Positions 33,514 to 61,738 of a DNA stretch of 64,000 nt are shown here, in pieces. Both the position numbers and the translations under genes were made by a program. Source of the stretch: a virus (lineage: Duplodnaviria; Caudoviricetes); the IMG/VR virus record IMGVR_UViG_3300021400_000027, positions 115,788 through 179,787 of that record, one strand, 5' to 3'. The notes under the pieces were generated by a model. The model saw nothing but the letters and a program-made list of their open reading frames with translations, was not told where the DNA came from and made no database searches. The first letter of the stretch is position 1; every line of letters starts with the position of its first letter.

Positions 33514-33565
33514 TATAAGGTTGTATTAAATTGATGCCAGCCGGCGCAGAAAAGGAGTAAATACT

Positions 33566-34429: not shown

Positions 34430-34546
34430 TTGAAATTTGCGTTGCGCCGGCTTGCGTAAGTTTTAAGAATGAATGCGTGCCGGCGCAAGGTAAGTTTTAA
34501 ATCAAATCCTATAATATATAGAAACTTAAGGAGAGGAGTAAATACT

Positions 34547-39332: not shown

Positions 39333-39867
39333 TTTATGGCTTTACAAATTGAATAAAAGGAAGAGGGCTTTGGACAATCCGCCCGAGACAAATCAACTTC
39401 AACGAAGTTGCAAAACCGCTATTTATTTGACTTGGCGATGATTTGCAATGTTAGTTGGACTTGCGTCAATTTTTTGGGTTGTCAAAAGTTCAGGCTTCTT
39501 TTACATAGGCGGTCTCCGCCGGAACTTTTGTTTTCGGTTGGGAGACGGCCCCTTTGTCGTACCCAAACGTAGCTCACAGGGACTTCCGAATTTTGGAGAG
39601 GGAAAATTATTTTGGAGACTCAGCTCAAACGCAGCTCACAGGGAGAGGGAATGGGTTGCGCCCGGGAGAAAAATTCGGCTGCCGGCGAGGGAGAGGGGAG
39701 GGAGAGGGGGAAACTCAATACCTACTATTTTTATGGGTTTAGTAGGTTGCGCCCGGGCGGTTTTCCAGCATTATATACAAAATAGAAGTCGAATTGTTGA
39801 AAAGTTTTTACTTGACAAATTTAGTAGAATGTGATATAATATATATAGTAAAGGAGATGAAGTTTAT

Positions 39868-42015
39868 ATGGCAACTAAATTCGTACCGCTTGACAAAATG
39901 AGTAAGAAGCAACAACGGGAATATTATAAGAAGAAAAGAAAAACTTGGGAGTTCAATCCTGCAACACGGACGGGAAAAAGTGAATATGAATATAAGAAAA
40001 AGAAAGAAGAAATGCAAGGAAAATGAAGAAAATGCGAGGTTTTTACCTCGCGCCCGGGCGGTTTTCGTTAAATTTAACAAAAATTTTGCGTTGCCGGCGA
40101 GAATTTTATGCAATTCGGAGATTTGACTTAAAAACTATTGACAAACTCTTTAAAATGTGATATAATTATATATGTAAGGAGGACGGAAAGCAAGGCGACT
40201 GGAAGTCCTAAAGCCCAAATCAGCGAGGTATTGAAAATGGCTAAAGGTGTAATCTTTACAGGTACGGACGGCAAGAAAACCAGAATGAACCGTGACGAAT
40301 TTGTTCGTTATATCGGCAACCTCTGGAAGGTGGCAAGAGAGGCTAAACTTGAAGCCGAAAAGGCAGACAAGGAAATCGAGGAGAATGGCGAATAATCGCC
40401 ATTTTCCCACAATTAGAAAGAGAGGTTATTCAATGAAGTGTTTTGTTTATAATAGAGCAAGAATGATAATTGCACGGAAGTCCGCTTTAGAAGATATGCG
40501 GAAATGGAGAGAAAACAAGGGTTATTTAGATAGGGATTTAATTAGAATTTTTATTGCTAATAATCTTAACAGACTCTTTGGTGCGGAATGCTGGGATAGT
40601 AACGTTGTTGACGGCATTTTGTGCGATATGCTGGACAATTTTGACATTGACTATGATGATGATGCAGATGATTATTATGTAAGCTCCCCTTGATGGGGAG
40701 TTTTCTCTATATATAGCCAAAATTACGTTGCGCCCGGGCGCGTAGTGAAAATGAACAAATTCAACATTAAAACTTTGTGCAACTTGCCAGTTGACAAATT
40801 TCAAAAAGTATGATATAATATATAATGTAAGGTAAAGAGAAACTAAGAAAGTGGAGGTAAAACTTATGAAGAAATTTCAAATCAATGTGAGAGGAGAGGA
40901 GAGAGGTCATCTTTTTGACAGCATTGGTCAGGCTTATCAGTGGACTTGCGAAAACGTAATGACAAAAGAAGATGCAGAATATTATAAGTCAATTGGAAAT
41001 ACAATTGAACTTCCTCAAATTCAAGACGAAAAAATTCAAGAATCCGTTTTAAGAAACGTGTTTGAAAAAATCTGCTTTTCCGGCTGGAATGATAGAGTAG
41101 ATTTGAACTCTGATTATTTTATTATTCATTAAATTTTAGAAAGTAGAGGATTATGCCAATGAGAGAAATTTTTGGACTTAGCGAAAAAAGAATTCAGCAA
41201 CTTTTAACAGAGGATATTCCAATTTCAAAACTTGCACAATTGGAAAAAGCGGAATTCCTTCTTGCTACATGGGGCATTGATGGCTATGCATTACTTTATT
41301 ATATTGATAGCACAAAAGACGAATATAAAGAAATGTACTTTGATACTTTTTTAACTAAGTGTAGACCTTGTGGCGGAGATTGGGGACAAATGTTCTTAAC
41401 TGGAATTAAAGAACTTTATCCAACTATTTACAATTTAATTCCTGATGATATGGGCTTGAATCCGTTTGCTAGTTTGTACGAATTATTGAGAGTTTTAGGC
41501 ATTGAAAAGTGTTTAGAAGAAAGTGGCGAATAATCGCCACTTTTACTTTATTTAAGTTAGCAAAGACTAACTCTGCGCCCGGGCGGCACAAAAATGAACA
41601 AATTCAACATTAAAACTTTGTGCATTTTGCGAATAGACAAAAACTAAAAAGTGTGTTATAATATATAATGTAAGGTAAAGTACAATAGCACAGAAATTGA
41701 GGTATTTTTATGACAGTATATGAAAAGAATTTCTATAAGAAAACAAGTCAAGATTATGTTTCTCATGACTTTTATATCTATTTTATTCTTACTATGCCTC
41801 CGCTTTTATCTAAAGAGGACTATTTAAAAGAAATCAGTAGAAGTCAATTTTTTCTAAATAGTAATTCAATAAGAGTTCTTAAGCCAATGACGAAATATAA
41901 ATTCTTAACAATCTCAACCACGCTTAACGATAAAAACTATTTAATTAAACATATTAACAATTGTAAAATTAAAATGAATACTTTAAAACAACGCAGTTGG
42001 AAAAAAGCTCCTTAA
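39868..42015 (+). other. cassette CDS, hypothetical: 39868-40026, 40237-40395, 40433-40693, 40866-41132, 41153-41533, 41710-42015
   Basis: each downstream of a consensus promoter and RBS. Confidence 0.65.
40792..40840 (+). promoter_or_regulatory. representative cassette promoter (TTGACA-N17-TATAAT with extended -10 TG, then AAGGTAAAG)
   Basis: near-consensus sigma-A promoter; recurs in nearly every cassette from 39.8 to 63.6 kb. Confidence 0.8.
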
Positions 42016-42123
42016 TGGGGCTTTCTTTGAATCTTAAAATTGTTGCGCCCGGGCGCAACAGAAGTTTACCTAGGAGAATACTAGGAATTAAAAAACTAAG
42101 AAAAGCCCCGAAGGGCTTTCTTG

Positions 42124-42528
42124 TCAATCATCAATTATAATTGCAGTACAGATTTTAATAATAGGATTTGCATTGTTGCTTGTTTGTTCTGCTAATGGCT
42201 TGTAAGCACTCTTTGAAAAGCGTGTTATTTTCATGAAATTATCTTCGAACCATTCATAAACGTCATCACAAGAAGCGAATTCAATATTATAACGTTCCTG
42301 AATATAGTCAACAAGATAATCCCAATCATCTTCATTGACAGAATAATATTCATCTCCTATTAAGGATATTGCTAAATCTCGATAAGCAAATTTTACCTTA
42401 TTGTCATAATTCTTAATCATAAACTGATTGGTGATAGCTTTTTCAAGTTCATCATGGTCATAGAACTTTTGAGCGATAACTTTACCATTTTCAGGGATAA
42501 CAATTGTAATTATATACATAGAATACAC
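42124..42528 (-). CDS. hypothetical cassette protein, C-terminus resembles 46366 ORF (NPIIK)
   Basis: minus-strand promoter at about 42585-42612. Confidence 0.7.
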   Translation of the reverse strand: MYSMYIITIVIPENGKVIAQKFYDHDELEKAITNQFMIKNYDNKVKFAYRDLAISLIGDEYYSVNEDDWDYLVDYIQERYNIEFASCDDVYEWFEDNFMKITRFSKSAYKPLAEQTSNNANPIIKICTAIIIDD

Positions 42529-42879
42529 ACTTTCTCATTTTATAGTCTTTGTTGACTTTTCTTTGTCTTTACCTTACAATAATATTATAGCATATTTATT
42601 TGAATTTGTCAATAGTTTTTTTGAAAAAATTTTCGATTTGTTAGTTTGAACAAAATGATTAAACAAAAGTTAAATTCTTTTAGTAATTATACTGACCGCC
42701 CGGGCGGCTTATACTCTCTGTATAATTACTCTCTGTATACTATTGTGCAACTTGCATAAAATTGTGGAGAAAATGTTGAAAATGTTTGTGCAAAATACCA
42801 CTTGATTTTTTTTGTAGGATATGATATAATATATAATGTAAGGTAAAGAAAAACGCAATAGTCTAAGGAGGACTGCCCT

Positions 42880-43227
42880 ATGGGATTTATTGACCTTGAT
42901 TCGATTCCGAAACTCTCTGCACAAGAAAAAGCCGTTCGTGAGAAATTAGCTGACGTTATTTACAAGGCTATGGTTGCAGAATTTGGTGAAGAAAACGTTG
43001 TTTTCGTGCCTAAAGCAATCAATCCGGCAGGCGGTAGCAAAATCAATTCTCTTTCTGTATGCGTAAAAGTCGCTGACGTAACAGACCGTGACGGCTTTCC
43101 TGTAGATGCCGTTGGTGTAATTCAACCTATGTGCAAGCCTTGGAATACCGTGCTTGCAAAGAATCGCACTGAACCGACTCCTGCAATTTCCCTTTATGAC
43201 ATTCAAGAAGAAGTCGACAACCTCTAA
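42880..43227 (+). CDS. hypothetical cassette protein
   Basis: AAGGAGG RBS; AEFGE motif shared with 47079 ORF. Confidence 0.7.
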   Translation: MGFIDLDSIPKLSAQEKAVREKLADVIYKAMVAEFGEENVVFVPKAINPAGGSKINSLSVCVKVADVTDRDGFPVDAVGVIQPMCKPWNTVLAKNRTEPTPAISLYDIQEEVDNL

Positions 43228-43484
43228 GAAAAATGGCGAGAAATCGCCATTTTTTTCTATCTATACAGACTGTAAAAGTGGCGAGAAATCGCCATTTATA
43301 CAGATTGTAAAACCCGCCCGGGCGGTTCGTCATTCTGCACAAAAGACGGGTTTCGGCAGAAAAAATTTTGTGCAAAACATAGAAACGCTTAAATACCTCT
43401 TGACAAAATTCAAATTCTATGATATAATATATATACAAGGTAAGGGGAAAGCCCCAAAGAATAGAAAGTGAGAGGTTACACTAT

Positions 43485-44492
43485 ATGAGTACTATTATCA
43501 ATGTAAGTAAGGAAAAAACAGCTATCAGCTTTCATTTAGATGATAAGCCGAATCCGGTCGTTATTGACTTTGTAAGTGGCACTATTATTTCATTTACTGG
43601 ACGTTCTGTCAAGTATACACCTGCAAGACTGGTAAATGCAGGCGGTGGAATTTTTTACCGCACTCTGCTTGGAAAACTTATTGATTGTATAACTAACCGC
43701 CATGAACTGGAAAAAGAAAGCTGTCTGTCCTATATGGATTTAATCAATCCGGACACATATTATGATGATTTACCGTGTGAAATTCCTAAGGGATATATTA
43801 ACTATCTCCGTGAAAACGGCTTGAATCTGAATCATAGAACCCTTAAAAATTTTAAGGATTATCAAGATTCTATGAAACTGCCGGAACAATATCGTGCTAT
43901 TTACCAAAGAATGACAAAAGCCCTGACACAATGGAGTTTTGATTGGCTCACAATAGATAAAAAGATTCTTGTCTGCAAAATCGCAAGAGTTACTGAAAAA
44001 GCTTGTAATTGGGAAATTAAAAATGATGCTTGTGACTTTCTGAATTATGTTTTTAATCACAATGAACTGGATTGGACTTCTATTGTAGATACTAATAGAG
44101 ACTTTAGTTATAATGTGAGATTGTTAAAATCTGCAAAAAGCAAAATGATTAGTGCAGGAATTGCAAAGACACAAGAAAAATTTAAATATCTTGAAAAGCT
44201 GGAAACAGAAGAATTTCAAATTGTTGTGCCGACTTGCATTGAACAATTGCAAGACGAAGGAAAACAGCAAAATAATTGTGTAGGCTATTTCTACAATCAG
44301 AGAATTATTGACGGCACTTATGCGATTTACTTTATTAGAAGAAAAACAAATCCTGATAAATCTTTTGTTACTTGCCGGATTGATATTGAAAGAAAAGAAA
44401 CAGTGGAACACAGATATTTCAATAACAGAGATTGCAACGATAGCAACGAACCCGAATGCAAATTTATTAAACTGATTGACGAAAATTTATAA
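43485..44492 (+). CDS. PcfJ-like domain protein
   Basis: C-terminal P....L..EG..Q.NCVG.....I...IYFIR...P.KS..T motif. Confidence 0.7.
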   Translation: MSTIINVSKEKTAISFHLDDKPNPVVIDFVSGTIISFTGRSVKYTPARLVNAGGGIFYRTLLGKLIDCITNRHELEKESCLSYMDLINPDTYYDDLPCEIPKGYINYLRENGLNLNHRTLKNFKDYQDSMKLPEQYRAIYQRMTKALTQWSFDWLTIDKKILVCKIARVTEKACNWEIKNDACDFLNYVFNHNELDWTSIVDTNRDFSYNVRLLKSAKSKMISAGIAKTQEKFKYLEKLETEEFQIVVPTCIEQLQDEGKQQNNCVGYFYNQRIIDGTYAIYFIRRKTNPDKSFVTCRIDIERKETVEHRYFNNRDCNDSNEPECKFIKLIDENL

Positions 44493-44775
44493 GAAAGTGG
44501 GGGTATTTTGCCCCCATTTTTCGGCATTTTTTTGTCCGCCCGGGCGGTTCGTCATTTTATATAAAAAATATAGGAAGTCGTGGAAAGTTTTGTGCAATCC
44601 TACAAACTAAAAAATTTTTTAAAAATCCCTTGACAAACGACTTAAAATATGATATAATATAATTACAGTAAAGGACAGGAACACAACAAAGAAAAGAGTT
44701 ACGAACTCAATAAAGTCCTTAGTCACTTTACTAAAAAATATTTATAATTTCAATGCCTTAACGGCAGAAAGTGAG

Positions 44776-45228
44776 TTGCTTATGTTTACATTTCACAAAG
44801 CTAATCTGACAAATGAAGTTAAATTCTCTACTGATTATCTGACTAAAGCTGATAAGCGTTCTATCACTGATACTGTAGAAAAACTTAACAAGGCTGTTAC
44901 TGCTGGAAATTCCAAAAAAATCGTGGAGCTTGCACGCTCTATTGTCAATGAAGAAAAACGCAACGAGAAAATCAATCGTCATGAAACTATCATCAATTCT
45001 ATTATCGGACTGCTGACCGCTGAAATGAATATTGGTGAATATACAAAAGTGCTTGAAGTTGCCGAAGTTATCCAAAGCGTACACCCTGAATGGTGCGAAA
45101 AAGACCATAACGGACAATTGTGCTGTCCTCTTGGTGCTGTTGCCTCTGCTTTTAACCGCCTGATTGATACCGGAAACTATGTGCTTATTCATGCTTGCAA
45201 CACAAAATATTTCAAGAGAATTGGCTAA
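44776..45228 (+). CDS. hypothetical protein, possible winged helix
   Basis: 150-aa cassette ORF. Confidence 0.65.
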   Translation: MLMFTFHKANLTNEVKFSTDYLTKADKRSITDTVEKLNKAVTAGNSKKIVELARSIVNEEKRNEKINRHETIINSIIGLLTAEMNIGEYTKVLEVAEVIQSVHPEWCEKDHNGQLCCPLGAVASAFNRLIDTGNYVLIHACNTKYFKRIG

Positions 45229-45395
45229 AAGAAAACGGCGAGAAATCGCCGTTTTTTACTACCCCAAATTCCGCCCGGGCGGACTTGTGCAATCTGTACA
45301 AATTCAACACAAAAACTTTGTGCATTTTGCGAATAGACAAAATCCATAAAATATGATATAATATAAATACAGTAAAGAAAGCGAGGAACTAATTT

Positions 45396-45896
45396 ATGAA
45401 ATCTATCTCTGTTTATTTTGACCTTGACGGCACTCTGTTTGACCTTTACGGCAAACGCAATTGGCTTGAAATGCTTGAAAATGAAAAAGCAGGAGCATTT
45501 GCAACTGGTCGCTTAATGCAGAACATTGACAAAGAAAGACTGCTGACTGTTGTCGCAGAATTGGCTAATTATGGCGTAAAATTTAACGTTATTACTTGGC
45601 TTCCTATGCAAGCAAGCCGTGAGTATGAAGAAATTTGTAAGGCTGAAAAAATCGCATGGGTTCGGGAAAATTTACCATTCATTGACGAAATTGTTTGTCA
45701 GTCCTATGGAGTACCGAAACAAAACGGCATAACAAAAAGAACTGCAAGAATGATTTTGATTGATGATAATAAAGAAGTTTGTGAAACGTGGGAAACGGCA
45801 AAACAGCGTACTTTTTTCAACGTAACTAAGGAATTTTCGGCAGTAAATGCACTGGAGACAATTTTAGGAAAAATCGTAAGTGGAGAATGGGTATAA
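45396..45896 (+). CDS. HAD-superfamily (5'-nucleotidase-like) phosphatase
   Basis: FDLDGTL, ITW, K..W, LIDD motifs. Confidence 0.75.
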   Translation: MKSISVYFDLDGTLFDLYGKRNWLEMLENEKAGAFATGRLMQNIDKERLLTVVAELANYGVKFNVITWLPMQASREYEEICKAEKIAWVRENLPFIDEIVCQSYGVPKQNGITKRTARMILIDDNKEVCETWETAKQRTFFNVTKEFSAVNALETILGKIVSGEWV

Positions 45897-46365
45897 ATGC
45901 CCATTTTTCGCCTCTCTTAATTGCGCCCGGGCGCAGAGGAAAAGCCCTCATAAAGAGGACTTTTTATTTTTCATCTTATTATAAAATTTTGTAAAGAATT
46001 CAGGTCTTTTCATTATCATTTCTATTATTTTTCTGGCTGTTGGCGGTGCATATTCTAAACAAAATAAATCATTAAAGCCTGCTGCCTTAGATAAGAAATA
46101 CATAAGTACAAAATCAAAATTTTCTCTCATCATAAAACTCACTTTCTGCTACTTAGTAGCGATAAAATTATTTTCTACAATAAAGTGACTAGAATTCTTT
46201 CAAGCCTTTTGCTTTCTTTCTGTTCTTGTTCTATCCTTTACTGTAATTATATTATATCATATAAAAGTAGTTTTGTCAATAGTCATTTTGCACAAACTTT
46301 GAGTTATTTAATTGTGCAAGTTGTTGCGCCCGGGCTCAATACTATTTGTATAATAGGAAAAGCCC

Positions 46366-46884
46366 TTATGATAAGGGCTTTTCATAGTATACGGGAATAA
46401 TGCGGTCAAATCCGTCAGCTTCACTTGCTTCTGTATAGGTGCGGAAAATGCACGCCGTTACGAACTTATTTCCATAGGCATATTGCCCAGCATAGCCAAT
46501 AGGCTTTTCGTCTGCTGAAATGCCGTTCTGCTTTTCATAAGAATTAGCAGTTACTTTAATAATAGGATTGTCGGCTTTACTCTCTGTATTAGGATTGATT
46601 TCAGGACTTACGTTGCAGGTAAAAGATGGCATTCCCTCGATATAATCAAGAACTTCTCCACAAAAGGCAAATTCAGTATCTCCGATTTCTTGCAGATAAT
46701 CATCAATGTTATCAAAGTCATTATTTGGAACTGAATCATCATCTTTTAACATTTCCAGTCCAATACTAATTAAATGTTTTTCTTTTTCTTCATAATTGTA
46801 ATTGTCAAATCTGTGTGCCGGAACGTTACAATAGCAAACAGATTCTTTTGTAACGGGGTTATAAATTTCTACACGGTATTCCAT
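46366..46884 (-). CDS. hypothetical cassette protein
   Basis: AAGGAGG RBS and promoter on minus strand. Confidence 0.7.
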   Translation of the reverse strand: MEYRVEIYNPVTKESVCYCNVPAHRFDNYNYEEKEKHLISIGLEMLKDDDSVPNNDFDNIDDYLQEIGDTEFAFCGEVLDYIEGMPSFTCNVSPEINPNTESKADNPIIKVTANSYEKQNGISADEKPIGYAGQYAYGNKFVTACIFRTYTEASEADGFDRIIPVYYEKPLS

Positions 46885-47078
46885 AGGGCAGTCCTCCTTA
46901 GGATTTAGGGTTCTTGTTCCTTACTACTCTTATATTATATCATATTTTTTGAAATTTGTCAACTGGCATTTTACACAAACTTTTACTGTGCCGACTGTCT
47001 ATATTTTATATAATCTGCACAAAGAGCCCGGGCGGTCTATACTCTCTGTATAATACAAGTGGTATAGGAAAAGCAGGG

Positions 47079-47504
47079 TTAAGAACCCTGCTTTTTTGCC
47101 TGTTTTTCGGCTTTTTCCTGACGTGCTTTTTCTCTGATTTCTTTCTGCTTTGCTCTTGCTTTGCGGTCACGTTCCATTTTTTCGGCTTTAAGTTTAGCTT
47201 TTTCGGCTTTACTTTCGTCTTTCTTTGCTTTTTCCTCTTTGTATTTTTCCGCTTGTTCCTTGCCGTTGTATGCCGGATATTCACGCATTTTCGTTTTTCT
47301 TCCTTCGAACTCTTTAACTTCTGGACTGAAATTTACATACATTTCTTTGCCGTCCGGTGCTGTTCCCCAAAGTACGGAAAATTCACTGTCACCAGTCTGA
47401 AATACCTTATCTTCGCCAAATTCGGCAATCAGGATTTTCCGCAGGATTTCGGTACTTTCTGCACGGCTCTGATTTTTGATTTGAGTAGGTGTTAATTCTG
47501 CCAT
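47079..47504 (-). CDS. hypothetical protein with Lys/Glu-rich coiled-coil tail
   Basis: AAGGAGGT RBS, promoter. Confidence 0.7.
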   Translation of the reverse strand: MAELTPTQIKNQSRAESTEILRKILIAEFGEDKVFQTGDSEFSVLWGTAPDGKEMYVNFSPEVKEFEGRKTKMREYPAYNGKEQAEKYKEEKAKKDESKAEKAKLKAEKMERDRKARAKQKEIREKARQEKAEKQAKKQGS

Positions 47505-47754
47505 AAGCTACCTCCTTAAGGTGTGGGCTTTTGTTTCTCTTACTATATATATTATAGCACAAATTTTATAAAAAGTCAATAGGTTAAAAAAAATTTCAGC
47601 GTTTTAACCAAATTGACTATTCAATTTTTATGCAACCTGACGGAATTATACGTCTTGTATAAGCCGCCCGGGCGCAATTTACGCTCTGTATAAACGGCGA
47701 AATTTCGCCGCCTATACAGTTTGTAAAGTAGGGAAAAATCCCCATATATGGGGA

Positions 47755-48522
47755 TTATTCGCCAAAAAGCCACTCAGAAAGTAAATCATCAGGATTTGTG
47801 CCATTTTCAGCCATAATTTTTTTTAATTCATTCCATGCAGAAATATGATTAGTTTTTACGCTTCTGTCAGTAGCAAGAGCCTTGAAAAGTAACGCTGTTT
47901 CGGCTTTTACGTCACTCAATGCCGTATGTTCTTCTTTAAATTCAGGGTCAAATAAATAGCGGTAGAAAGTTTCTGCTTTTGTCTGAATATTGCCGTTTTC
48001 GGTTAAATATCCATTCATAGCACACCAACCGCAATAGTGCAGATTATTACAGTGAGTATAGAAAGCCATGGTCTGAATATCGTGCCAATTGATTAAAGTA
48101 TAAAGTTTTTCGGCTTTTTTGCCGAAAGAGCGAACTAATGCAGACCTATCAAACGGAAAGTTAAAAGCGAAAACATCACGAACTTGATATTTTTTAATTA
48201 CAGACTGTAAAGTCAGCCACATTCCACGTTCTGTTTTGTAATTATACTTTGAGTTGAATCCCTTAAGAATGTCATGGAGGTTATTAACATACATTGTGTT
48301 AAGGTCTTTAGTCTGATTTTTTTCCTGATTATAGGTCAAATTTTGTTCCAAATATTCAGGAATAGCGTAAGAATGACATTCTACTACTTGTAGAGTTTGC
48401 AAATCTACAACAGTAAAGCCGATATTATAAGACGGCATAGCAGAATAACCCTCTGTATCTAAGACAATACCGTAATGAGCATTACTGCTTAAATAGGTGC
48501 ATTCAGTTTTTCGTTTTGCCAT
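47755..48522 (-). CDS. DEDDh-family 3'-5' exonuclease
   Basis: LDTE, AFNFPFD, EEHTALSD motifs. Confidence 0.8.
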   Translation of the reverse strand: MAKRKTECTYLSSNAHYGIVLDTEGYSAMPSYNIGFTVVDLQTLQVVECHSYAIPEYLEQNLTYNQEKNQTKDLNTMYVNNLHDILKGFNSKYNYKTERGMWLTLQSVIKKYQVRDVFAFNFPFDRSALVRSFGKKAEKLYTLINWHDIQTMAFYTHCNNLHYCGWCAMNGYLTENGNIQTKAETFYRYLFDPEFKEEHTALSDVKAETALLFKALATDRSVKTNHISAWNELKKIMAENGTNPDDLLSEWLFGE

Positions 48523-48826
48523 TGGTGAAAATCTCCTATTCTGAAACGAACTGAATTTTTGTTATTTTCGTTTCTCACTATAATTATTATAGCACATTTC
48601 CCCTGAAAAGTCAACTGTCAAAATGCACAAACTTTCTGTCGCTGTCTCTCCTGATGCTGTACAAATTGCACAAATACGAACCGTATAATTATACTTCCAT
48701 AAATTAAAATAATTATACGGGGAGTATTTGCGCCCGGGCGCTTGGTCTAAAAATGGCTATATTGCGTGGTTTTTGAAGATTTACAAACTGTATAACGGAA
48801 AAATCCCCCATATAGGGGGATTTCTT

Positions 48827-49324
48827 TTAGATAATGCTGTTTGCGATTCTTGTGTATACACGGACTTTGTTATTATAGCCTACAACATTCTCAATAGAAG
48901 TCGAGAAAAAGCCGTCCTCTACCAAAGAATCAAGTGCTTTCTGGATTTTCGGTCTGGTATAGTCACGCTTTGCATTCAGGCAATGTTCACGCCGTGCATT
49001 GTAGCTTTCCATACCCTGAAAGTCGCCGTAATCGTCAAGACCGGACTGCACAGAAAGTACAGTAACAATATCACCAATTTGTGTATTGTTATAGAGGTAT
49101 TCACGGATTCTGTCGTGAATAAGCTGATTCATGCGTTCACGGCAAATACGCTTTTTTTCGGCTTTCTGTTCATAGCGTTCTACATAAGAACGTGCATAAG
49201 CCTGTTCTGATTCAGTGCCATATACACCGTCAGCGATTTTCCGCATAATACTGATTGTAGAGGGCAGAACACATGCATTAACAGTAGAGTTTACAACGGG
49301 TGCGAGTTTAACAGTAATAGCCAT
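48827..49324 (-). CDS. hypothetical protein, possible winged helix
   Basis: C-terminal KIQKALDSLVEDG followed by beta-hairpin-like segment. Confidence 0.65.
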   Translation of the reverse strand: MAITVKLAPVVNSTVNACVLPSTISIMRKIADGVYGTESEQAYARSYVERYEQKAEKKRICRERMNQLIHDRIREYLYNNTQIGDIVTVLSVQSGLDDYGDFQGMESYNARREHCLNAKRDYTRPKIQKALDSLVEDGFFSTSIENVVGYNNKVRVYTRIANSII

Positions 49325-49642
49325 AGGGCAATCTCCATTCTCCGCTTTAAGCGGTGTTAAGTTTTTCTTTACCTTACATTATATATTATATCACATTTTT
49401 TGTGATTTGTCTATTCGCAAAATACACAAAGATTTCTTTTTCTTTTGTCCAGAATTTATGCAATCTACACAAGCGCCCGGGCGCGAGCCAGAAGTGGCTA
49501 TATATAGCCATTTTTAGAGGGGTTTACAGATTGTATTTTTGGCTATATATAGCCAAAATTACGATTCGTATAGGGTGGGGCTTTAAAGTGCTAAAGTATA
49601 CAGAAACGGAAAAATCCCCATTTCTGGGGATTTTCCGGCTTA

Positions 49643-50906: not shown

Positions 50907-51136
50907 AATTTTCTCCTTTACTGGTCGTGGTTTTCTTTACCTTACATATATATTATATCACAACTTTTGTCATTTGTCAATAGGTTTTTAGAAATTTATA
51001 TGATTGCACAAAAATGTTGTGCCGACTGCCTATAAATTGTGCAACTTATACAAAGAGCCCGGGCGCAAGCCCAGAAATGGCTATATTGCGTGGTTTTGTA
51101 GATACGGAAAAATCCCCCATATAGGGGGATTTCTTA

Positions 51137-51538
51137 TCAGGATTCGGATTCGTCAGCAGTTTCGGCAGTTTTGGCAGTAATGAGAGAGTAACCAATAACC
51201 TTGCCGGATTTTGCCTTAACTTCGGACTTTTCGAGTTCTCCAGCAGTGACAAGCTGTCCGAGGAGTGCGGAGGCTTTCTGTGTAGAAAAGCCCATAACAT
51301 CAGCGATTTCCTTAGCTGTATAGCAGTTGCCTACGTCCATCATTTCGAGGATTTGTGCCTTAATTTCGGCATTTTCTTTCTGTGTCTTAGTGCCGGATTC
51401 CTTACGCTTAGAGTTCTTCTTATCGAGTGCGGTCAGCATAGCCTGAGCCTTGTCGACCATTTCGGCAGTAATTTCCTTACCCTCTACAATAGCGGTCAGG
51501 AGTTCACGTTCGGTCATAGTTTTAGCTGTAGTTGCCAT
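51137..51538 (-). CDS. winged-helix DNA-binding protein (MATTAKTMTERELL family)
   Basis: close paralog of 49643-50056. Confidence 0.75.
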   Translation of the reverse strand: MATTAKTMTERELLTAIVEGKEITAEMVDKAQAMLTALDKKNSKRKESGTKTQKENAEIKAQILEMMDVGNCYTAKEIADVMGFSTQKASALLGQLVTAGELEKSEVKAKSGKVIGYSLITAKTAETADESES

Positions 51539-52154
51539 AAAAACGCTCACTTTCTTGCCTTACGGCAGTCAGGGAAATTCAGTCAGTTTCAAGGTCTTAC
51601 TTTCCGTGCCTTGTCTTTACTTTTCAATCCCTCTTGTGTTTTACTGTACTATTATTATAGCACATTTTTAAGGAAAAGTCAATTGGCAAGTTGCATAAAC
51701 TTTTTAAAGCCAATTTGTTTATTTTGCCTATCCGGAATCGGCAACCAGTCGTTCGGGGTTCTGTTCTCTTTCCCTTGACTGTATATATATTATATCATAG
51801 ATTTTTAATTTTGTCAAATTGGAGGCTGGAATTTTTCTCTATATATGGGGATAAAGTGAGGTGAAAAGTTTGTGCAGGTTGTACAAATTTCTTCACAAAT
51901 TTGATTGTGTTTTGTGCAAATTCACAGCTCACAGACGCTTTAAAAATGGCGATATATAGGCAAAAATTTTGCGCCCGGGTTTGCAGCTCACACGGAGTGA
52001 GAAATTCCGATATATGGGTAAAAAATTTTGCGCCCGGGTTGGACGCAGTCGAAGAGTGAGGGTCGGGGCCCTGATCTAGGCCAACATCTACTATTCCTAT
52101 AGGTTTAATAGGTTTTGCGCCCGGGCGCACTTTAGTGCATTAAAATGGTGCGTA

Positions 52155-53211
52155 TTAACGCACCGGGTCAGAGGCCGCCTTTTCATCTTCCTCTCTCCAG
52201 AGGAGAGCCTGCAGGCACACCTCAAAGGTGGCGGCAAAGCTTTCCGCCTGCGTATGACCGTTTTTTGGACAGTCATATTCGCCGTATTCGGCATCAACTT
52301 CTGCCAACATCAGGCGGATAGCCATTTCATGGGTGAGCGGCTGATTGTTGAAAGTAATATTTGTAAACATAAGCTTGTACCTCCTTAAGGTAGAGAAAAA
52401 GAATTTAATTTTATTGTGGTTAGACCATGCCCCTCCGGTCTAACCGTGCCCGCATTCAGAGAGAGTAATCTCAATCCCTTGCGCCCCTAAGGGGTGGGCT
52501 GTGGCGCAGAATTGACGTTCTGTCAACTCAATTATTATATTCAGTTGTGGGTATCACATGGGATAGTACCTCCTATTCAGTTTTAGATGGAGACCGGAGA
52601 GCCGTCAGGCGGCTGCCGCCGTTGCTGTCCGTTCCCTTACCTTGTATATATATTATACCATACAATTTAGGATTTGTCAAGAGCTTTTTGAAAAAATTTT
52701 TAAGTTTGTGCAATCTGCACAGCTGCCTGACCTGATGTATTGAAAACTTTCAGCATCTTGCACAAACCGCCCGGGCGCAATAACTCTCTGTATAATAAGA
52801 AAAGCCCCCATAAAGAGGGCTTTTTTAATAGTCTGTAACGCCTAAATAGCCGTGTTCATCATATACAGCGGAATAATCTTCATCATAAGCCTTATCTATA
52901 TCATAATTACCATAATGATTATCAATAAATACGGTCAAATTCTTTCCTTCATAGTCTATGTCAAGTGACTTAATTTCCTTTATTTCGTCATCTTCACGGT
53001 CTGAAAAATATTCTTCAATATATTCATCATCAATATAATAATTCATAATATCATAGTTATCATTTTCATATCTCCAGCCGGAAATGGAAGCCTTTGCCTT
53101 TTCTTCTGTTGTGAAAATTCCTCTAATTGTAATAGTTGGATAGCTAACGTTTCCAGTCCAAGAGGGGGTATAATCATCATCATCTGTAACATAGGGGATA
53201 TAAAGCATCAT
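52155..53211 (-). other. cassette CDS, hypothetical: 52155-52370, 52825-53211
   Basis: RBS and minus-strand promoters. Confidence 0.65.
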
Positions 53212-53696
53212 AGAATACCTACTTTCTCATTTTATAGTCTTTGTTGACTTTGCTTTGTCTTTACCTTACATTATATATTATATCACATCTTTTTTAATTT
53301 GTCAATAGTCAAATTGCACAAATTTTTGTAAGATAGAGGAGTAACTAAAGTTTTTGCGGGACTGTTCCTACAGAGCCTTACGGAGTCTGCCCTTTAGGTA
53401 CTCTCTCTTTACCTTACAATAATATTATATCACATCTTTTTTAATTTGTCAATAGTCATTTTGCACAAAGTTCTTATACTATTTTTGTGCAATTTGCTGA
53501 GCCCGGGCGGTTTGTGCAAGTTGCATAAAGAATAGACATTTGAAAGTCTTGAATTTGTGCAAAACGTAGAAACAAAAATTTTTTTTAAAAACCCCTTGAC
53601 AAATCACAAGAAATGTGATATAATTAGTACATAAGGTAAGGGGAACGAACCCCACATACACTAACCGGACGTACTGTCCAGAATGGAGAATAATCT

Positions 53697-56600
53697 ATGA
53701 ATACTTATGTTATCTGCTACAAGTCCGTTAAGCCCTCTGTTTACAATAAGGGTACTAAGTGGGAAACTACATGCGACAGATTTCTGCTCTGTGAATGCGG
53801 TTCTAAGGAAACGGCTGAAAAGGTACTTGCTGACCTGACTGCAAATCCTGAAAAAATCGCTAAGTTTGGCGTAAATCCGGCAGTAGTTGCCTCTCTCTTT
53901 ATTAGCTATCAAGAAGCCATGTATTGAGAAAAAGCCCCCTATATGGGGCTTTTCTTGATATACTAAACCTACTAAAACCATAGGAGTAATAGGCTTTGCG
54001 CCCGGGCGGTTTTGTTCAAATTGAACAAAACCGCATGCAGATTTGTTAAAAATCTTTGTGCATTTTGACTATTGACAAATTAGTCTGGATATGATATAAT
54101 AATAATGTAAGGTAAAGACAAACACTAAATCAAAAAGGAGAAATTAACTATGTTGAATGTTACTATCTTTAAGGCTTCCGACTTCCGTTATATCGAAACA
54201 GCAGAGGTTGCTGAATCCGAATTTTTCGCTTACGTCCGTTCCCTGATTGAAGAATACGGCTGTCAGGTTGTTGTTGACGTGGAAGAATGCGGTGACGTAC
54301 AAATCACTATCTATGACGACTATCTGGAATAAGGAAATGGGCGAGAAATCGCCCTTTTCTCCATGTTGCGCAGTTAGCATAAGCTAACTGCGCCCGGGCG
54401 GTTTGTGCAATTTGTCTAAATACAATAAACTTTTTTGTGCAATGTGACAAATTTTTAAAAAGGGCTTGACAAATTCTAAAAGTTGTGGTATAATAAATAC
54501 ATAAGGTAAAGCAAAGAGCATAAATGCTCAAATAAAGAAAGTAGAGGTAATTTATTATGAACACTTTAACAAAGACTTTAACAGATTTATACACAATTTT
54601 CGCTAAGTACGGAATTTTCTTTGCAGTCACAAGAGATTCTATCGATTGGATTACTATTGATATTGACAATAACTTTTGCACAGATTATGACGCTTTTTAC
54701 AATGCTATTGCTGATTATGTGAATTCTGTTAATACTTTAACTGGTAAGGGAATCAATGACTATCATAATTGGAGAGGGGCTTATATAATAGACTTTTCTG
54801 ATTTGACTATTATGATTGATTGAGGACAAAGAAACGGCTAGAAATAGCCGTTTTTTAAATTCTATAGTTAGCATAGACTGACCGCCCGGGCTCTTTGTGC
54901 AATATGTATAATTTAATTGATAGTTTAACTTTCTTTTTGTGCAAAGTAACAAATTAAAAAAAATTTCAAAAAACCCCTTGACAAATTCTAAAAGTTGTGG
55001 TATAATAAATACATAAGGTAAAGGAAAACAACTTGAAAGGTTAAGGTGTTAATTATGTTAAGTTTATCAGATTATCGTGCTTTAGAATCTTGTTATCTTG
55101 CTGAATTAAGTCCTTGTGCAGGCAGTGTAATGATAACTTGTGATTTAAGAAAGACCTCTTTTGACTATGACGAATATAAAGCCCAAATCAGCAGACATAC
55201 CAGAGAGGTAAAAGAAACTCTTGAAATGCTCGGATTTAAGCTGATACAGAAGCGTACATGGGGATTAAAATATTCTGACATATACGGGCATACGGTCATG
55301 TTTATTGAGATATAAGGATACAAAATATATAAGAAACGGCTAGAGATAGCCGTTTTTTAAGTTTTATAGTTAGCATAAGCTGACTGCGCCCGGGCGCATT
55401 GTGCAACTTGTATACTTTATTCAATATATAGTGTTGCCTTTTGTGCAAAATGCTGATTTTTCAAAAAGCCCTTGACATTTGCTCTAATATGTGCTATAAT
55501 ATATAATGTAAGGTAAAGAGAAACAACGACAAAGAAAAGAGGTACGCTTATGAAGAATAACGCTTACAAAAAGAATACTATGGGCAAATGGGTTTCTGAC
55601 ATCTATAATAAGAGAACCCGTGTCAAGGTTGCTAATCGCCGTGTACGCCGTTCCGGCAAGAATGTTAAGGAGGATGCTGATAATGCGTAAGATTGATTAT
55701 GTATCTGTATTTCTGTGTGCTATCGCCGCAGGTCTGTGTTGGATTGGAAATCCGCTTGCAAGTTTCGTATTTGTGGTAAATTCTGCAATCGGACTGACTG
55801 ACAGCATTAAGGGAAAAGTAATTGCTCCGGCACTTATTAACGGAATTTTCCTTGCCTTGAATTTCGGCTGTTCTGTAGAGTTCTTATTGTCGTTTTAAGG
55901 AGGTAAAGCATATGTATAATGTAGTTGAGAAAATCGGTTCTATTCGCCTGACAATTCATTCCACTAAAGACAAGGCTTCAGCGGAACGCATTGCACAGCA
56001 ACTCCAGAAACTTCACAAAGACCGCACAATTATTGTGACGAAAGCTAAAAAGCCCTAAACATAGGGCTTTCTGGGCTTGCGCCCGGGCGCATCGTCATTT
56101 TGCACAAATTCAACACTTAAAGTTTGTGCATTTTGCGAATAGACAAATCCCTGAAAATATGCTATAATATATATACAGTCAAGGGAAAGACTGAATAAAA
56201 GAAATGAGAGGTACACTTCTATGAGTATTATTAAAGCTGTCCGCTGTCTGCTTGCATTCGTCAACATTAAAAGCCATTATGACCTTTTCTATGGTACTCT
56301 GTGCGGTAACACGACTTATTCTGTAGGCTATGACGAATTTCGTAACGCTCTGTATATGAAATTCAGAGAGGTTTACGGTCACAAGGATTCTGAAACAATG
56401 ACCGACAAAACACTGACCGTATTTACTGACAACGGCTGTATTAAGTATGACACAATCAAAGATAGATATTATATGACTGTCAACTTCTATGGTATCGGAA
56501 AATAAGAGGGGCTTTGTCCCCTCTACACTCTAAGGAGGAAAGCTTATGTATTTAATTTTAATTCTGCTTGCTGTTGTCTGCTATTTGCGTTCTGTTTGCT

Positions 56601-56752
56601 TTGACGTGGTTTTTGAAAGCAAGTACGCTTATAAAATTTATAACTATGAATACGGTCATTTATATATTACTCTGTCTACTAAGCCGGAATATTACTCACA
56701 GTTTAAGAAAGTCGCTGGCTGGCAACCGGAAATTACTAAGCGTATATTCTAA
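53697..56752 (+). other. cassette CDS, hypothetical: 53697-53927, 54150-54332, 54557-54823, 55046-55315, about 55683-55898, 56221-56505, 56546-56752 plus very short ORFs
   Basis: each downstream of a consensus promoter and RBS. Confidence 0.65.
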
Positions 56753-56855
56753 AAAATGGCGATATAAGGGCAAAATTGCCCTTGCGCCCGGGCGGCTTTA
56801 CGCTTTAAAGTGCTAAAGTGTAGGGAAAAGTCCCCACACAAGGTGGGGACACGCT

Positions 56856-58141
56856 TTAGCAAGTGAAATCAGGAGTAAATTCAACGTCCTTGCCGTCCGG
56901 AGAGATGCCGGATTCGGCTTCCTTACGGCGTTTTTCAACCGCCTTGCGGAGTTCGTCGTCAAACTTTTCAAGTTCACGGCGAGAAGTGAAAGTAATCTTC
57001 ACACCAGAGGGGAGGGTACGGGTAACGGGTGTTCTCAGTACGTCTTTCATGAGAAATACTCCAATCTCTGCATATAGCAGTGATAAGGCTTTGGGTAGAG
57101 AGAGTATCGGGTTTTCGTTCCGTTCCTCTCTTTCCCCTTACTACTCTTATATTATATCATACTTTTAAAGAAAAGTCAATAGGTTTTTTGCTGTTTCTCT
57201 GTTTTGCACAAAAGATTATTTATAGAGGGGAGCTGATTGTGCAACTTGCACAAATGCGCCCGGGCGCAATAAATTTGATTTATAAACATCATAAGCCCTC
57301 TTAATAGAGGGCTAAGATGTTAAAAGCTCCATTGTTGAGGGTCTACAATACCAAAACGACAGGTGCAAGAGAATGGGGCATAATATGGACATTCATCACA
57401 GCAAGACATAGAACGACAAAGTTCTTTAATCATTTTAACTGGTTCTTCTATATCTCCGCCGACTTTACTTACAATTTGTTCATATTTTTGACAAGCTTTT
57501 TTAGTGGAAAATTCCAGTCCGTCTTCTGCAATATAAGTAGTTACTTCTTTCATGGTTAATACCAGCCTTTCAATTTTGTTTTGTGGTTTTCTTTACCTTA
57601 CATATATATTATACCACAACTTCTATAATTTGTCAATAGGCTTTTTTAAGATTTGTATACTTGCACAAATTAGAGGGGCATAAATTGTATATTTTGCACA
57701 AATGCGCCCGGGCGCAGATTTTGGGGTGGGGATAAGGGCTAAAAATAGCCCTTAATCCCACTTAGACTGCTGGATAAATGCTGTTCTTGCCATGCACTTA
57801 TAACACCACATGTGCTTCTGGTGTCCCTCTCCAGTTCTATGACTTGACTTCTTGTATGCGATTGCCTTAGTACCGCATACGGAACACTTAAAAACTCTCT
57901 CTACTACAGTTCTCTTTCTCATTGTGTTTTCCTCACTTTCTTATCTTGTGGCAGATTCTAACAGATTATAGTACAGAACAAATGCATTGTATTCAGAGGG
58001 GTATTCATAATGCTTTTCATTGTGCAGATTTACGTCTATAAAAGACCAGAAAATCCATACCCAGAAAATAACCGCAATTGTAGCACCTACAAACTTGCTA
58101 AAATTTTTCCAACTGAAATGACGACCTCTCATTTGAGCCAT
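56856..58141 (-). other. cassette CDS, hypothetical: 56856-57050, 57320-57553, 57941-58141
   Basis: minus-strand promoters in each cassette. Confidence 0.65.
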
Positions 58142-58537
58142 CTCCTTTCCTTTACTGTACTTATATTATATCATAAAATTTTAATTTTGTCAAGGGCTTT
58201 TTCAAAAATTTTTTAAGTTTGTGCAATTTGTATAGTTTTTTAGAGGGGTCTGTTTATTTTTTAGGCGGATTGCACAAATCCGCCCGGGCGCAACAACTTT
58301 TACTTATAGGGTCTAAAAAATTTCTTATCAATAATAATAAGTATGGGGTCTTAAAAATTTGACTTATCTATCAAAATTATTTATGATATTATAGGGATTG
58401 AACATGAAGAAAAGTGAACAGAAATTAAATAAAAGTTTGTGTATAATGACTATTGACTTTCAAATAAAAATATGGTATAATTATATTACAGTCAAGGGAA
58501 AGACTGATAATAAAAAGAAAGTTAGAGGTAAATTTTT

Positions 58538-59008
58538 ATGGGTATTATTTCTATTTTAACGTCTGCTGTTGCTGTTCTGAATATGGTAAAGCCTATTCCG
58601 GCTGATAATTATTATAGCTGGTATTCAGAAGAAATTGCTGAAAGTATCATGGAGACTGTTGTTGCTAACGAATATTATCCTCATTTGGATTTTAATGGTG
58701 ATGGTGTACTGTCTGTAGTAGATGCTGTTTCTGTCCGTAAGCGTTATATTTATAATGTGCTGAATGGAAATACAATGCACTTTGGTGAATCTGATGTTAT
58801 GGAAATTGTAGCAGAAAACTTTAAGCCGGAAGAATACAACGAATATTTTTATTATGAAATTGATTTCGTTAATGGTGAATGCTGTCGTGCCTATGAACTG
58901 GACTTTTCAGAAACTGCATATATTCATGTGTATATGGAGATGAACGAAAAAACGGCTGATTTTAGCGTTTTAATCAGACCTACAGAAGAATCTTATCAGG
59001 TGTATTAA
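58538..59008 (+). CDS. exported protein with one dockerin-type Ca-binding repeat
   Basis: hydrophobic N-terminus; DFNGDGVLSVVDAVSVRKR. Confidence 0.6.
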   Translation: MGIISILTSAVAVLNMVKPIPADNYYSWYSEEIAESIMETVVANEYYPHLDFNGDGVLSVVDAVSVRKRYIYNVLNGNTMHFGESDVMEIVAENFKPEEYNEYFYYEIDFVNGECCRAYELDFSETAYIHVYMEMNEKTADFSVLIRPTEESYQVY

Positions 59009-59194
59009 ATGGCTAAATATGGGGCAAAATTGCCCCCGCGCCCGGGCGCATAGGCAGATTGCACAAATTTATGTATGGCGGCGAAAGGAAAGTTTGTGCA
59101 ATTTGACTATTGACAAATTTCTTAAAATATGATATAATTATATTACAGTCAAGGGAAAGACTGGAATAAATTAAAGAAAGAGTAGGTACACAAT

Positions 59195-61738
59195 ATGGAT
59201 TTAATGAGATGCGAAATTTGCAAGCGGTACTGTAACTATGATAATTCTGTCGGCAAAGAAAATTATATTGTCTGCAATGACTGCTATAATGCTGTTACAG
59301 AAGATTTCATTAAGACTAACAAGAATCTCTGTCCTGAAGATGTTGCAAGACTGATTCCGTTGCAAATTCTCTTTATGCTGTCTGATGTTCGGAAAAACAA
59401 TAAATAATTGAGAGGAGAAATTTAAAATGACAAAGCTTGATTTATACAATAAGCTGAATGGAATGATTAACAGCGGTACAATTCACTGTAGAATTAAGTG
59501 GGAGTATGATACAATTAGTGTGACTTATCCGCTTGGTAGTGGTGAAGATATTGAACAAATCGTGCTGGATTTAATTGAAGATGAAGATTTCACCTATGGA
59601 AGCTGGAAATACGAACATTATATTCTTATTGAAATTAATTAAAATTTTAAATAGCAGAACGTAGCTCACTGGAGTTGCGTTCTGCCATTTTGTAGCTCAT
59701 AAACGTAGCTCACAGAGACTTTTAAAATTTGGCGAATTATGGGGATAAATTTTGCGCCCGGGTGAAATTTAGAGGTCGAAGGGGGGAAAATAGGATCGGT
59801 CCCTGGTTAGCCTAGGCTAACTAAAATCGTAGAAACAGCGTAGAATAGCCATTCGCTCGAATTAGCCTATGCTAACTTACAAAACAACGTAGAATAGCCA
59901 TTTCAAGGTCTCTAGTTAGTCTATGCTAACTCAAATGTTTCACGTGGAACATTCGTCATTTTGCACAAAAATTGTTGAAAACTTTCTCCATTAAAATTTT
60001 TTATTCAGCTACTACTATTTTTTATAGTGTTCCGCTCAACCGGAAAAATTTTGCGAGCCTGATTATTAAAATTAAATACAAAGTTGTGCAATTTGCATAA
60101 TACAGATACTTTAATTTGTACAGTTTTTGTGCAAAGTGTAAAAATTAAAAAAATTTCAAAAAAAGTATTGACAAACGCTTGAATATGTGATATAATAGTA
60201 AATGTAGAGAGGGGAAATACCCCAAAACATATTTAAAGAAAGTGGGTTGTCTATATGAAAAATCTGAATGAAATGACTGTAGCAGAAAAGAAAGAATTAC
60301 TTGTTAAATGTGGTGAAATTTACCACGAATACAGCAAGTCCGAAAAGTACCTGATTGCATTCCAGAATACAGACGGCAATATCTATGGTGTACTGATTGA
60401 CTTTTCTGCTTTCTGGAAATTTGCTAAACTGGATAAGGCAAGCGGTAGCAGTAACGGTGGAAAAATAATAATCCGTGCTAACACTGGATTGAAAAATTTA
60501 CTTGCATTAAATCCGTTTCTTCTTTGCACTCAAACTCAATGGAATGAAACAACCGGAAAAACAAACGGAAACAAACTTGAAACACTGTTTAATAAAACTC
60601 CTGACAACAAAAATTTTGCACAAAGTCCTGACATTATTTATAATGGATATGCAACGCAATTGAAATTTTTTGGTAAAAGTGCAAGTAATGTTTGTCCGGT
60701 AGCACTTCTTGAAAAACTTTCTGGAAAATCCCTTATTTAAGGGATTTCCGGATACTATGCAAACTGCACAAATTAAACTGTTGAAATTGTGCAGTTTGCA
60801 CAAACTTAAAAAAATTTCAAAAAAGCCCTTGACAAATCCTTAAAAGTATGCTATAATAAATACATAAGGTAAAGCAAAGAGCATAAATGCTCAAATAAAG
60901 AAAGTAGAGGTAAAGACTTATGACAAAGGCAACTGAAACAAAAATCGAAATGGTAAAAGCTGAATTTGGCGGTAACTGGTTCACTGCTAAGGCTGTCAAG
61001 AATCTGCTTAACTCTGATTTCATCAGAACTCTTGTAAAGAATGTTCCTGAAATCGTAATTGATAAGCAGACTGTTGAAATCGAAATTTCCGGCACTGAAT
61101 ACGCTGAATTTATGGCGAAATATGGCGACAAAATGGACACGGTAAATTTTGGGGGCGTGGGCATGTGCTACACTGAAAACGGAAAATATTATAACAAGCG
61201 GACTGAAACAAGATACAGATTTCCGGAATAAGTCCGGAAATCCCCTGAAATAGTCCTTCCGCTCAAACGAATAGCAGAATGCACAAAAGACTGTTTAGAA
61301 ATTGTGCATTCTGCACAAATCGAAAAATTTTTAAAAAAATTTCAAAAAAGCCCTTGACAAATCCTTAAAAGTATGCTATAATAGATACATAAGGAAAAGG
61401 GAAAAGCCCTTAAAGAAAACAAGCCGGACAAAGTCCAGAAAGTGAGATTGATTTATATGCTGTATGGTGTAAGCACTATTTTAGAAAACTTGTTTGAAAT
61501 GAATCTTGTAAGTAAGATTGAATCAAAAGAAGTTGATTTCTATTTCCAGATTGGTGAAAAAGGTATGTATGGATACGATTTAATTCAAGAGGTTATGAAA
61601 ACAGAAAATGACTTAATTCAGGAGTTAAAAAATTTAGGATTTGAAAAGACTGATTTTATTTGTGAAGAATATGCAGACGAATACACAAACTATATTTATA
61701 CAGTAAGAATCAGAAATGCAGTTTTTGCTAATAATTAA
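59195..61738 (+). other. cassette CDS, hypothetical: 59195-59407, 59427-59642, 60255-60740, 60920-61231, about 61457-61738
   Basis: promoter + RBS + terminator each. Confidence 0.65.

Follow-up and report, generated by a model that had tools for sequence, protein, structure and literature searches.

The closest described systems to the one presented here are the PeSL cassettes of T4-type phages, in which a strong early promoter and a terminator stem-loop are placed around ORFans (Arbiol et al. 2010, PMC2839356; Comeau et al. 2014, PMC4122927). Insertions and deletions (indels) arise in these phages via recombination between PeSLs, and mini-circles are described; the two papers mention neither palindromes nor inversions (PMC2839356, PMC4122927). 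The locus under study lies in the last 64 kb (hereafter the window, 64,000 nucleotides) of a 179,787-bp IMG/VR virus record, IMGVR_UViG_3300021400_000027, which is rated complete and is here labelled G000. Positions 39661-59762 of the window hold an array of about 30 autonomous early-gene cassettes with 34 CCCGGG sites, 30 of which read GCCCGGGC. We consider it fairly probable that this palindrome is both the boundary of the early units and their favoured point of exchange, and that a sequence-specific step focuses the exchange there.

Distribution of the palindrome and anatomy of the junctions

Shuffling predicts 0.15 copies of GCCCGGGC and 3.0 of CCCGGG in the window, against the 30 and 34 observed, and every copy of both falls inside the array span. 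Across the whole genome (179,787 bp) the same span accounts for 30/30 GCCCGGGC and 34/36 CCCGGG, the other two being plain CCCGGG within coding sequence. The palindrome array is confirmed as a real and strongly non-random feature, and the concentration of 34 sites pointed out in an earlier note on this DNA agrees with the count. Inter-site spacing ranges from 59 to 1222 bp (median 650). Genes in the array were called with a codon model trained on long open reading frames (ORFs); none of them overlaps a site, all array sites being intergenic, and each interval holds one or two short genes, the ORF-less units of 59-91 bp aside. These units are bounded by the half-extended sites, which are 4 of the 34 (39661, 51974, 52033 and 59757). 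The proposal of the earlier note that almost every interval holds one unit stands as regards promoter, leader, boxes and terminators, and fails for the units without an ORF at these four sites. The ORF-less units (39661-39757, 51974-52125), which are kept in the relatives L146 and L152, have in common a GCAGCTCACA box together with a CCTACTA...TAGTAGG hairpin; in a palindrome-free relative, L065, the junctions are filled by similar CCTATAGG/TAGTAGG elements.

Many 6-bp palindromes are wholly missing from G000 (GATATC, 0 against 33 expected; GACGTC, 0 against 12; CTCGAG, 0 against 8.6), and GGCC (24) and CGCG (19) are scarce in the whole genome. Restriction sites are thus strongly avoided, and the 34 retained CCCGGG stand out all the more. 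GCCGGC has 117 copies in the whole genome, only 3 of them in the array, with 1 and 0 in the final two 10-kb bins, a distribution roughly complementary to that of GCCCGGGC.

The array has 22 promoters that match TTGACA-17-TATAAT perfectly and carry TG (extended -10); at a threshold of 11 matches out of 12 there are 32, one or two to a unit. Terminator-like hairpins number 37 against 14.8 expected, and the GTAAGGTAAAG leader and TTGTGCA boxes are also present. At tandem junctions the order is terminator, site, promoter module; the three convergent junctions (42048, 45926, 56787) read terminator, site, terminator, and the three divergent ones (42699, 53502, 58283) promoter, site, promoter. It is at these coordinates that the gene calls switch from + to - and from - to +, respectively, so that the orientation changes at sites seen in the earlier note are reproduced. 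Exactly one site is found at each junction of every type, the rest being tandem, and because a single site is present at tandem, convergent and divergent junctions alike the palindrome is part of neither the promoter nor the terminator. The gap between site and -35 box is 49, 50, 52, 54, 62-69 or >70 nt, a variation which speaks against a phased operator or activator site. That the palindrome might itself serve as the -35 box of some special promoter was ruled out, since TTGACA-17-TATAAT stands at a variable 49 to >70 nt from it and the site is also present at convergent junctions. Moreover, at 60-64 kb the promoter modules and TTGTGCAA/TTGCACAA boxes recur in units from which the palindrome is missing, and therefore the promoter does not need the site.

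Between 40 and 64 kb, in and out of the array, nearly every -35 box has directly upstream of it a TTGTGCAA-N(1-2)-TTGCACAA dyad and a second box, TTTGTGCA; together they are likely to be the operator for a shared early-gene regulator. An Rfam search of 36-64 kb, with E values up to 1 admitted, produced no relevant match.

The invariant core of the site is the 8-mer GCCCGGGC, with C at +1 in 60/60 half-sites. It is the sole element common to all junctions; when extended the site reaches at most about 20 bp, and its flanks differ among junctions. Beyond the 8-mer the flanks are polar according to cassette orientation, TTGCG/CCC on the terminator side and GGG/CGGTTT on the promoter side, which implies that each half-site travels with its own cassette end. 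When the array region was compared with itself, 27 of the 143 homology blocks ended within 10 nt of a site and 8 crossed one, the block ends accumulating at position 0 of the site. This comparison shows the promoter-side and terminator-side modules as separate repeat families, joined at the palindrome and assorting independently.

Rearrangements among relatives of the array

Three near relatives (L146, L147 and L148) came from a metagenome scan with the array exonuclease gene, and L152 (17.8 kb) from an exact-protein look-up. L152 is 99.6% identical to L146 and belongs to a different assembly; cassettes common to the window and the near relatives have 92-95% identity. Eight events (E1-E8) distinguish these arrays from the window. 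The losses of cassette 41578-42048 in L152 (E1), of the two cassettes 56787-57707 in L146/L152 (E6) and of cassette 48733-49476 in L147 (E7) have both breakpoints in the palindrome; at E6 homology switches inside GCGCCCGGGCG, with 48/48 bases identical on the left. All four breakpoints of E4 are also there: 52770-54001 is inverted (also in L148), the cassettes 52120-52770 and 54001-54393 are missing and another cassette is present. The gene calls agree, a 76-aa gene and the exonuclease being on the same strand in L152 and on opposite strands in the window.

One breakpoint out of two is in the palindrome in E2, an insertion of ~845 bp with an extra gene beside site 42699 in L152, in E3, where an unrelated 564-bp cassette replaces 45926-47027 in L146/L152 (left break exactly at site 45926, right break 27-37 nt off a site), and in E8, a replacement in L147 whose right break is in a promoter module. 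In E5, the swap in L146 of ORF 55055-55315 between conserved promoter and terminator modules, neither breakpoint is. Altogether about 13 of 18 breakpoints are inside the palindrome and the remainder in promoter or terminator modules, and at the palindrome joints only 10-13 bases are common to both sides. Among the first ten breakpoints counted seven lie within 10 nt of a site centre, a zone that makes up 3.4% of the sequence (P = 6e-9).

As far as can be read from aligned assemblies, these comparisons show the palindrome to be the cassette boundary and the preferred exchange point in near relatives. The earlier note had anticipated cassette gain, loss and inversion with breakpoints at the palindrome, and all three were found. 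It had also named what would speak to the contrary, a fixed cassette order or breakpoints outside the palindrome; this was looked for in the relatives, and the order varies while the near-relative breakpoints fall mostly inside the palindrome. Its idea of exchange at the palindrome holds for the 13 breakpoints and has to be qualified for the other 5 and for most of those in distant pairs, which are in promoter or terminator modules.

Three further assemblies, a scaffold from ENA and contigs from JGI and Logan, reproduce the order of G000 at 100% identity, and a chimeric assembly is unlikely because the 12-bp repeat is shorter than assembler k-mers. Another exact-protein look-up gave no match. 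An independent assembly of the same phage, L150 (JGI contig 3300002641), ends exactly at site 49476 (contig end = window 49482); this stop, at the joint of the cassette missing in L147, may be an assembly-graph branch from population heterogeneity.

In a more distant comparison, G005 with G009 (94% identical), G009 has a 1.3-kb insertion of one cassette whose joints share only GCCCGGGCGC. ORF swaps between conserved modules, along with occasional site loss by point mutation, were also found in distant pairs. No inversions were found in the G005/G009, G006/G008 and L103/L115 pairs.

Relatives carrying the array were sought by two motif scans of IMG/VR, which yielded >20 contigs of 95-176-kb phages with CCCGGG-rich stretches; the first scan (site plus TTGTGCAA) gave mostly chance single matches and two real relatives. 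The 8-mer is restricted to one interval of 6-20 kb in 12/12 relatives scanned whole (G001-G012; GC 33-48%), and the part conserved across their arrays is GCCCGGGC. In three close pairs 161/168 site bases are conserved against 0.89 expected from the flanks (P = 0.002), and by this measure the site is maintained by selection. The HAD nucleotidase gene as query found 80 further loci, the 20 nearest being without a CCCGGG array. Some sister lineages have other short GC palindromes (TGCCGGCA or CGGGCCGCCCG) at the equivalent spot between hairpin modules and promoter boxes, and so the junction palindrome is lineage-specific. A megablast of the array against cultured phages gave no match, phAss-1, the nearest named phage, has no array, and the PcfJ-like protein of the array as IMG/VR query found no relatives.

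Proposed mechanism of exchange and rival explanations

Every unit of the array is equipped with a host sigma-A promoter of consensus type, a leader common to the units, one or two short ORFs and an intrinsic terminator. Both of its ends are halves of GCCCGGGC, so that any pairing of ends (tail-head, tail-tail or head-head) restores the palindrome. Exchange leaves one intact palindrome per joint, and excision or insertion as well as inversion are seen, as the symmetry of the site permits. The step at the 8-bp symmetric core would be a break and rejoining, or a pairing, by a putative phage or host factor. Homologous recombination between the 50-150-bp promoter/terminator modules, which is the PeSL mechanism, may act in parallel as a second route. 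We infer that a sequence-specific step directs exchange to the core, because repeats of 50-150 bp, some with >40 identical bases, are nearby and yet most breakpoints use the 12-bp core, and because foreign cassettes too arrive flanked by the core. The bolder proposal of a previously undescribed integrase-free cassette exchange, in which a putative factor reads GCCCGGGC and excises, inserts and flips whole early-gene units, is put forward tentatively, as less likely than not but with a substantial chance of being right; such a factor might make a restriction-like break and rejoin it at GCCCGGGC, or might be an unrecognised recombinase.

Several points weigh against focused exchange. All rearrangement events were inferred by comparing assemblies. 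In the distant pairs most indels either sit between module repeats of 23-84 bp or fall within cassettes, and site-bounded events amount to 1/6 in G005/G009, about 2/10 in G006/G008 and 0 of about 9 in L103/L115. Point mutation can erode sites; the equivalent of site 54885 in L146 reads GCGCCGGCGC, against CGCCCGGGCT in the window. Precise deletion between 12-bp direct repeats could reflect slippage or short-homology recombination together with selection for whole units. In addition, no enzyme was found: the models for Phage_integrase (PF00589), Resolvase (PF00239), Y1 transposase (PF01797) and HNH (PF01844) had no match in the complete G000, and its one GIY-YIG domain (PF01541) is part of a late gene that is TAG-recoded and unconnected with the array.

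The first two models also had no match in 10 other array-bearing relatives (five genomes at least 98% complete, controls positive), which extends to the whole of G000 and these relatives the remark of the earlier note that no recombinase is visible in the window. C5 (PF00145) and N4/N6 (PF01555) methyltransferases had no match in G000, and PF09571 (XcyI-type) and PF09015 (NgoMIV-type) had none in 11 genomes, the controls being equally without match. A 255-aa protein conserved in the arrays was ruled out as a candidate site-specific nuclease, since its alignment gives DEDDh exonuclease motifs.

The main rival explanation, to which we give a minor but real share of probability, is that the palindrome is chiefly the binding site of a dimeric DNA-binding protein (an insulator, a roadblock or a global early-gene regulator), with a winged-helix protein of the array as candidate binder. 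Breakpoints would then reflect microhomology and selection for intact units, and would coincide with the palindrome since it is the only sequence common to all the dispensable spacers. A perfectly symmetric core under purifying selection fits this explanation, and the presence of TGCCGGCA or CGGGCCGCCCG at the same position in sister lineages is as expected of protein-site co-evolution. It can also draw on the winged-helix paralogues (49643-50056 and 51137-51550) kept in several arrays and on the lack of any recombinase match in eleven array-bearing genomes. However, promoters and terminators stand at no fixed distance from the site. Convergent junctions have the site although they lack a promoter, divergent ones have it although they lack a terminator, and identical promoter modules at 60-64 kb are without it. 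Moreover, with longer repeats nearby, microhomology alone would hardly bring about inversion and the import of foreign cassettes exactly at the 12-bp core.

Pure shuffling of the PeSL type, by homologous recombination between promoter-terminator modules of which the palindrome is merely a conserved piece, is very improbable, although the 23-84-bp repeats around indels in G005/G009 and G006/G008, the ORF swaps between conserved modules (55039-55329; G005 9761-10326) and the strong consensus promoters beside stem-loops, as in PMC2839356, are in its favour. Homology crosses the site in only 8/143 blocks and hence no composite repeat spans the junction, no more than 10-13 bp are common to the two parental junctions in the case of J1, E1 and the G009 insertion, and exchange between direct repeats does not account for inversions. 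The way in which cassettes are gained, lost and flipped at a short repeat also resembles a true integron or shufflon with a canonical tyrosine or serine recombinase, or could come from assembler joins at the repeat; this we hold to be the least probable explanation, scarcely to be expected given that Phage_integrase and Resolvase had no match in 11 genomes with positive controls and that no attC-like or sfx-like site was found. As for assembler joins, the 12-bp repeat is below k-mer length, and the variant order is found in three assemblies (L146, L152, L148) and that of G000 in three others.

Cargo, genome setting and comparison with known systems

Most of the array cargo has no Pfam or PHROG match, the recognisable products being a HAD 5'-nucleotidase, a DEDDh exonuclease, winged-helix proteins and a PcfJ-like protein. 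At the left edge (39661-39757) a half-extended site is followed by a 91-bp unit without ORF. The + strand then carries cassettes 39752-40058 (promoter 39812, ORF 39868-40026), 40053-40738 (promoter 40138, ORFs 40237-40395 and 40385-40693; site 40053 mutated away in L152), 40733-41583 (promoter 40791, ORFs 40866-41132 and 41159-41533) and 41578-42053 (promoter 41634, ORF 41710-42015; missing in L152). Cassette 42048-42704 is on the - strand (promoter 42612, ORF 42124-42519), between the convergent junction 42048 and the divergent junction 42699. The + strand resumes with 42699-43322 (promoter 42802, ORF 42880-43227), 43317-44544 (promoter 43400, PcfJ-like protein 43485-44492), 44539-45279 (promoter 44630, ORF 44782-45228) and 45274-45931 (promoter 45334), whose HAD-type 5'-nucleotidase (45396-45896, DxDGT motif) is in the arrays of all relatives checked.

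From 45926 the cassettes are on the - strand: two at 45926-47032 (ORFs 45948-46130 and 46366-46884, promoters 46279 and 46962), which are replaced in L146/L152, followed by 47027-47672 (promoter 47579, ORF 47079-47504), 47667-48738 (promoter 48614, DEDDh 3'-5' exonuclease-like protein 47755-48522), 48733-49481 (promoter 49413, ORF 48827-49324; missing in L147), 49476-50492 (promoters 50198 and 50354, winged-helix-like protein 49643-50056), 50487-51063 (promoter 50980, ORF 50565-50906) and 51058-51979 (promoters 51682 and 51817), which encodes the winged-helix paralogue 51137-51550, 67% identical to 49643-50056. Two ORF-less units of 59 and 87 bp with three bounding sites (51974-52125) separate these from cassette A (52120-52775, - strand; promoter 52680, long leader, ORF 52155-52370), which is missing in L146/L152. 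The - strand at 52370-52650 forms a GC-enriched leader of ~280 nt between the consensus promoter 52680 and the 71-aa ORF of cassette A, and has no Rfam match.

The segment inverted in L146, L152 and L148 (52770-54006) is a divergent pair, B (-, 52825-53208, DUF7336) and C (+, 53697-53927), around site 53502. It is followed on the + strand by cassette D (54001-54398; promoter 54072, ORF 54150-54332), missing in L146/L152, and by 54393-54890 (promoter 54466, ORF 54557-54823), 54885-55394 (promoter 54978, ORF 55055-55315, the one swapped in L146) and two cassettes at 55389-56792 (promoters 55472 and 56140, ORFs 55550-55690, 56221-56505 and 56546-56752). The last - strand cassettes are the two at 56787-57712 (ORFs 56856-57050 and 57320-57553, promoters 57179 and 57636), missing in L146/L152, and 57707-58288 (promoter 58193, ORFs 57941-58141 and 57752-57922). 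Two + cassettes at 58283-59762 (promoters 58453 and 59110, ORFs 58538-59008, 59195-59407 and 59427-59642) complete the array at the half-extended site 59757. In the region 59763-64000, which served as control, the promoter modules and TTGTGCA boxes of the array recur in cassette-like units that have no palindrome.

In the structural and replication genes of G000 TAG is read as sense, ORF coverage rising from 0.37 to 0.73 on TAG read-through, and a single 2560-aa ORF contains 85 TAGs. The array ORFs have no in-frame TAG, and the same is observed for ORFs of at least 200 aa at window ~0.3-36 kb. A suppressor tRNA with anticodon CTA (4096-4169) is encoded within a cluster of 26 tRNAs, which is adjoined by a Ro60/TROVE-like protein (DUF2828 + DUF7788) and two RNA ligases (9764-11290, 13689-14612 and 15360-16481). 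The phage also encodes a tmRNA (21033-21374, Rfam 141 bits) with the tag peptide ADYAIAA, and four tandem paralogues at 30918-35545 with YdcK beta-solenoid/hexapeptide repeats and a DUF7666 domain (68-75% DNA identity). An adenylosuccinate-synthetase-like gene (26809-27966) matches PHROG '2-aminooxy adenylosuccinate synthetase' (E 8e-34) and is read as PurZ-like, so the phage DNA may carry 2-aminoadenine; if so, a site of G and C only would stay unmodified. The portal protein finds its closest matches, at 30% identity or less, in phAss-1, a member of the code-15 clade, and in large Firmicutes phages; the host phage of the array is classed as a TAG-recoded, Firmicutes-type large rumen/gut phage of ~180 kb.

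Early accessory genes are where phages keep their host-takeover and counter-defence functions, and their rapid turnover is poorly understood. In this array a grammar of turnover becomes visible, namely self-expressing units that end in half a palindrome and are removed, added, replaced and flipped there in natural relatives. If it is true that a specific factor reads the site, this would be a new integrase-free cassette exchange with a very small site, relevant to phage evolution and as a tool, and large TAG-recoded rumen and gut phages would own a dedicated platform for trading early genes, in which sister lineages have switched palindromes. Even if only microhomology and selection are at work, the array still offers a clean way of telling where functional early-gene modules begin and end across a large clade of uncultured phages that read TAG as an amino acid. 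It is also a catalogue of strong portable promoter and terminator parts.

A full-text literature search for the site with "phage" found no published description of a GCCCGGGC array. Like REP/BIME elements with their RAYT, the array places short GC-rich palindromes between the transcription units of one genome; REPs, however, are imperfect palindromes of 20-40 bp, chromosome-wide and served by a Y1 transposase, whereas the array site is of 8 bp, confined to one 20-kb array and without Y1_Tnp. With shufflons and invertases (Rci, Hin/Gin) it shares the inversion of segments between short repeated sites, but no recombinase was found in the searched genomes and the sites are self-symmetric instead of inverted pairs of asymmetric ones. 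Moreover, the array also deletes, inserts and replaces, and what moves are whole transcription units and not variants of a coding segment. As in integrons, small cargo genes come and go as whole units at a short conserved site, and a loss leaves one site behind. The site is nevertheless a perfect palindrome of 8-12 bp, where attC is an imperfect hairpin of 57-141 bp with R/L boxes, and the cassettes have their own promoter and terminator in both orientations and no common Pc promoter. Since no IntI or other tyrosine or serine recombinase is present in the eleven array-bearing relatives searched, the array is not an integron, and the integron-like platform suggested in the earlier note has to be given up, there being no attC either; nor is it a shufflon or a REP/RAYT system.

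The likeness to PeSL cassettes goes further. ORFan early genes, a very strong host-type promoter beside a terminator stem-loop and a hyperplastic region are common to both; relatives differ by insertion, deletion and replacement of units, and some array events are flanked by promoter-module repeats. The array differs in having a discrete GC palindrome of 8-12 bp between terminator and promoter as the main breakpoint, in repeats that seldom span the junction, in units that are found on both strands and inverted between relatives, and in its phage, which is TAG-recoded and of Firmicutes type and not a T4-like myovirus. By this analogy the array appears to behave like a palindrome-jointed variant of the PeSL cassettes.

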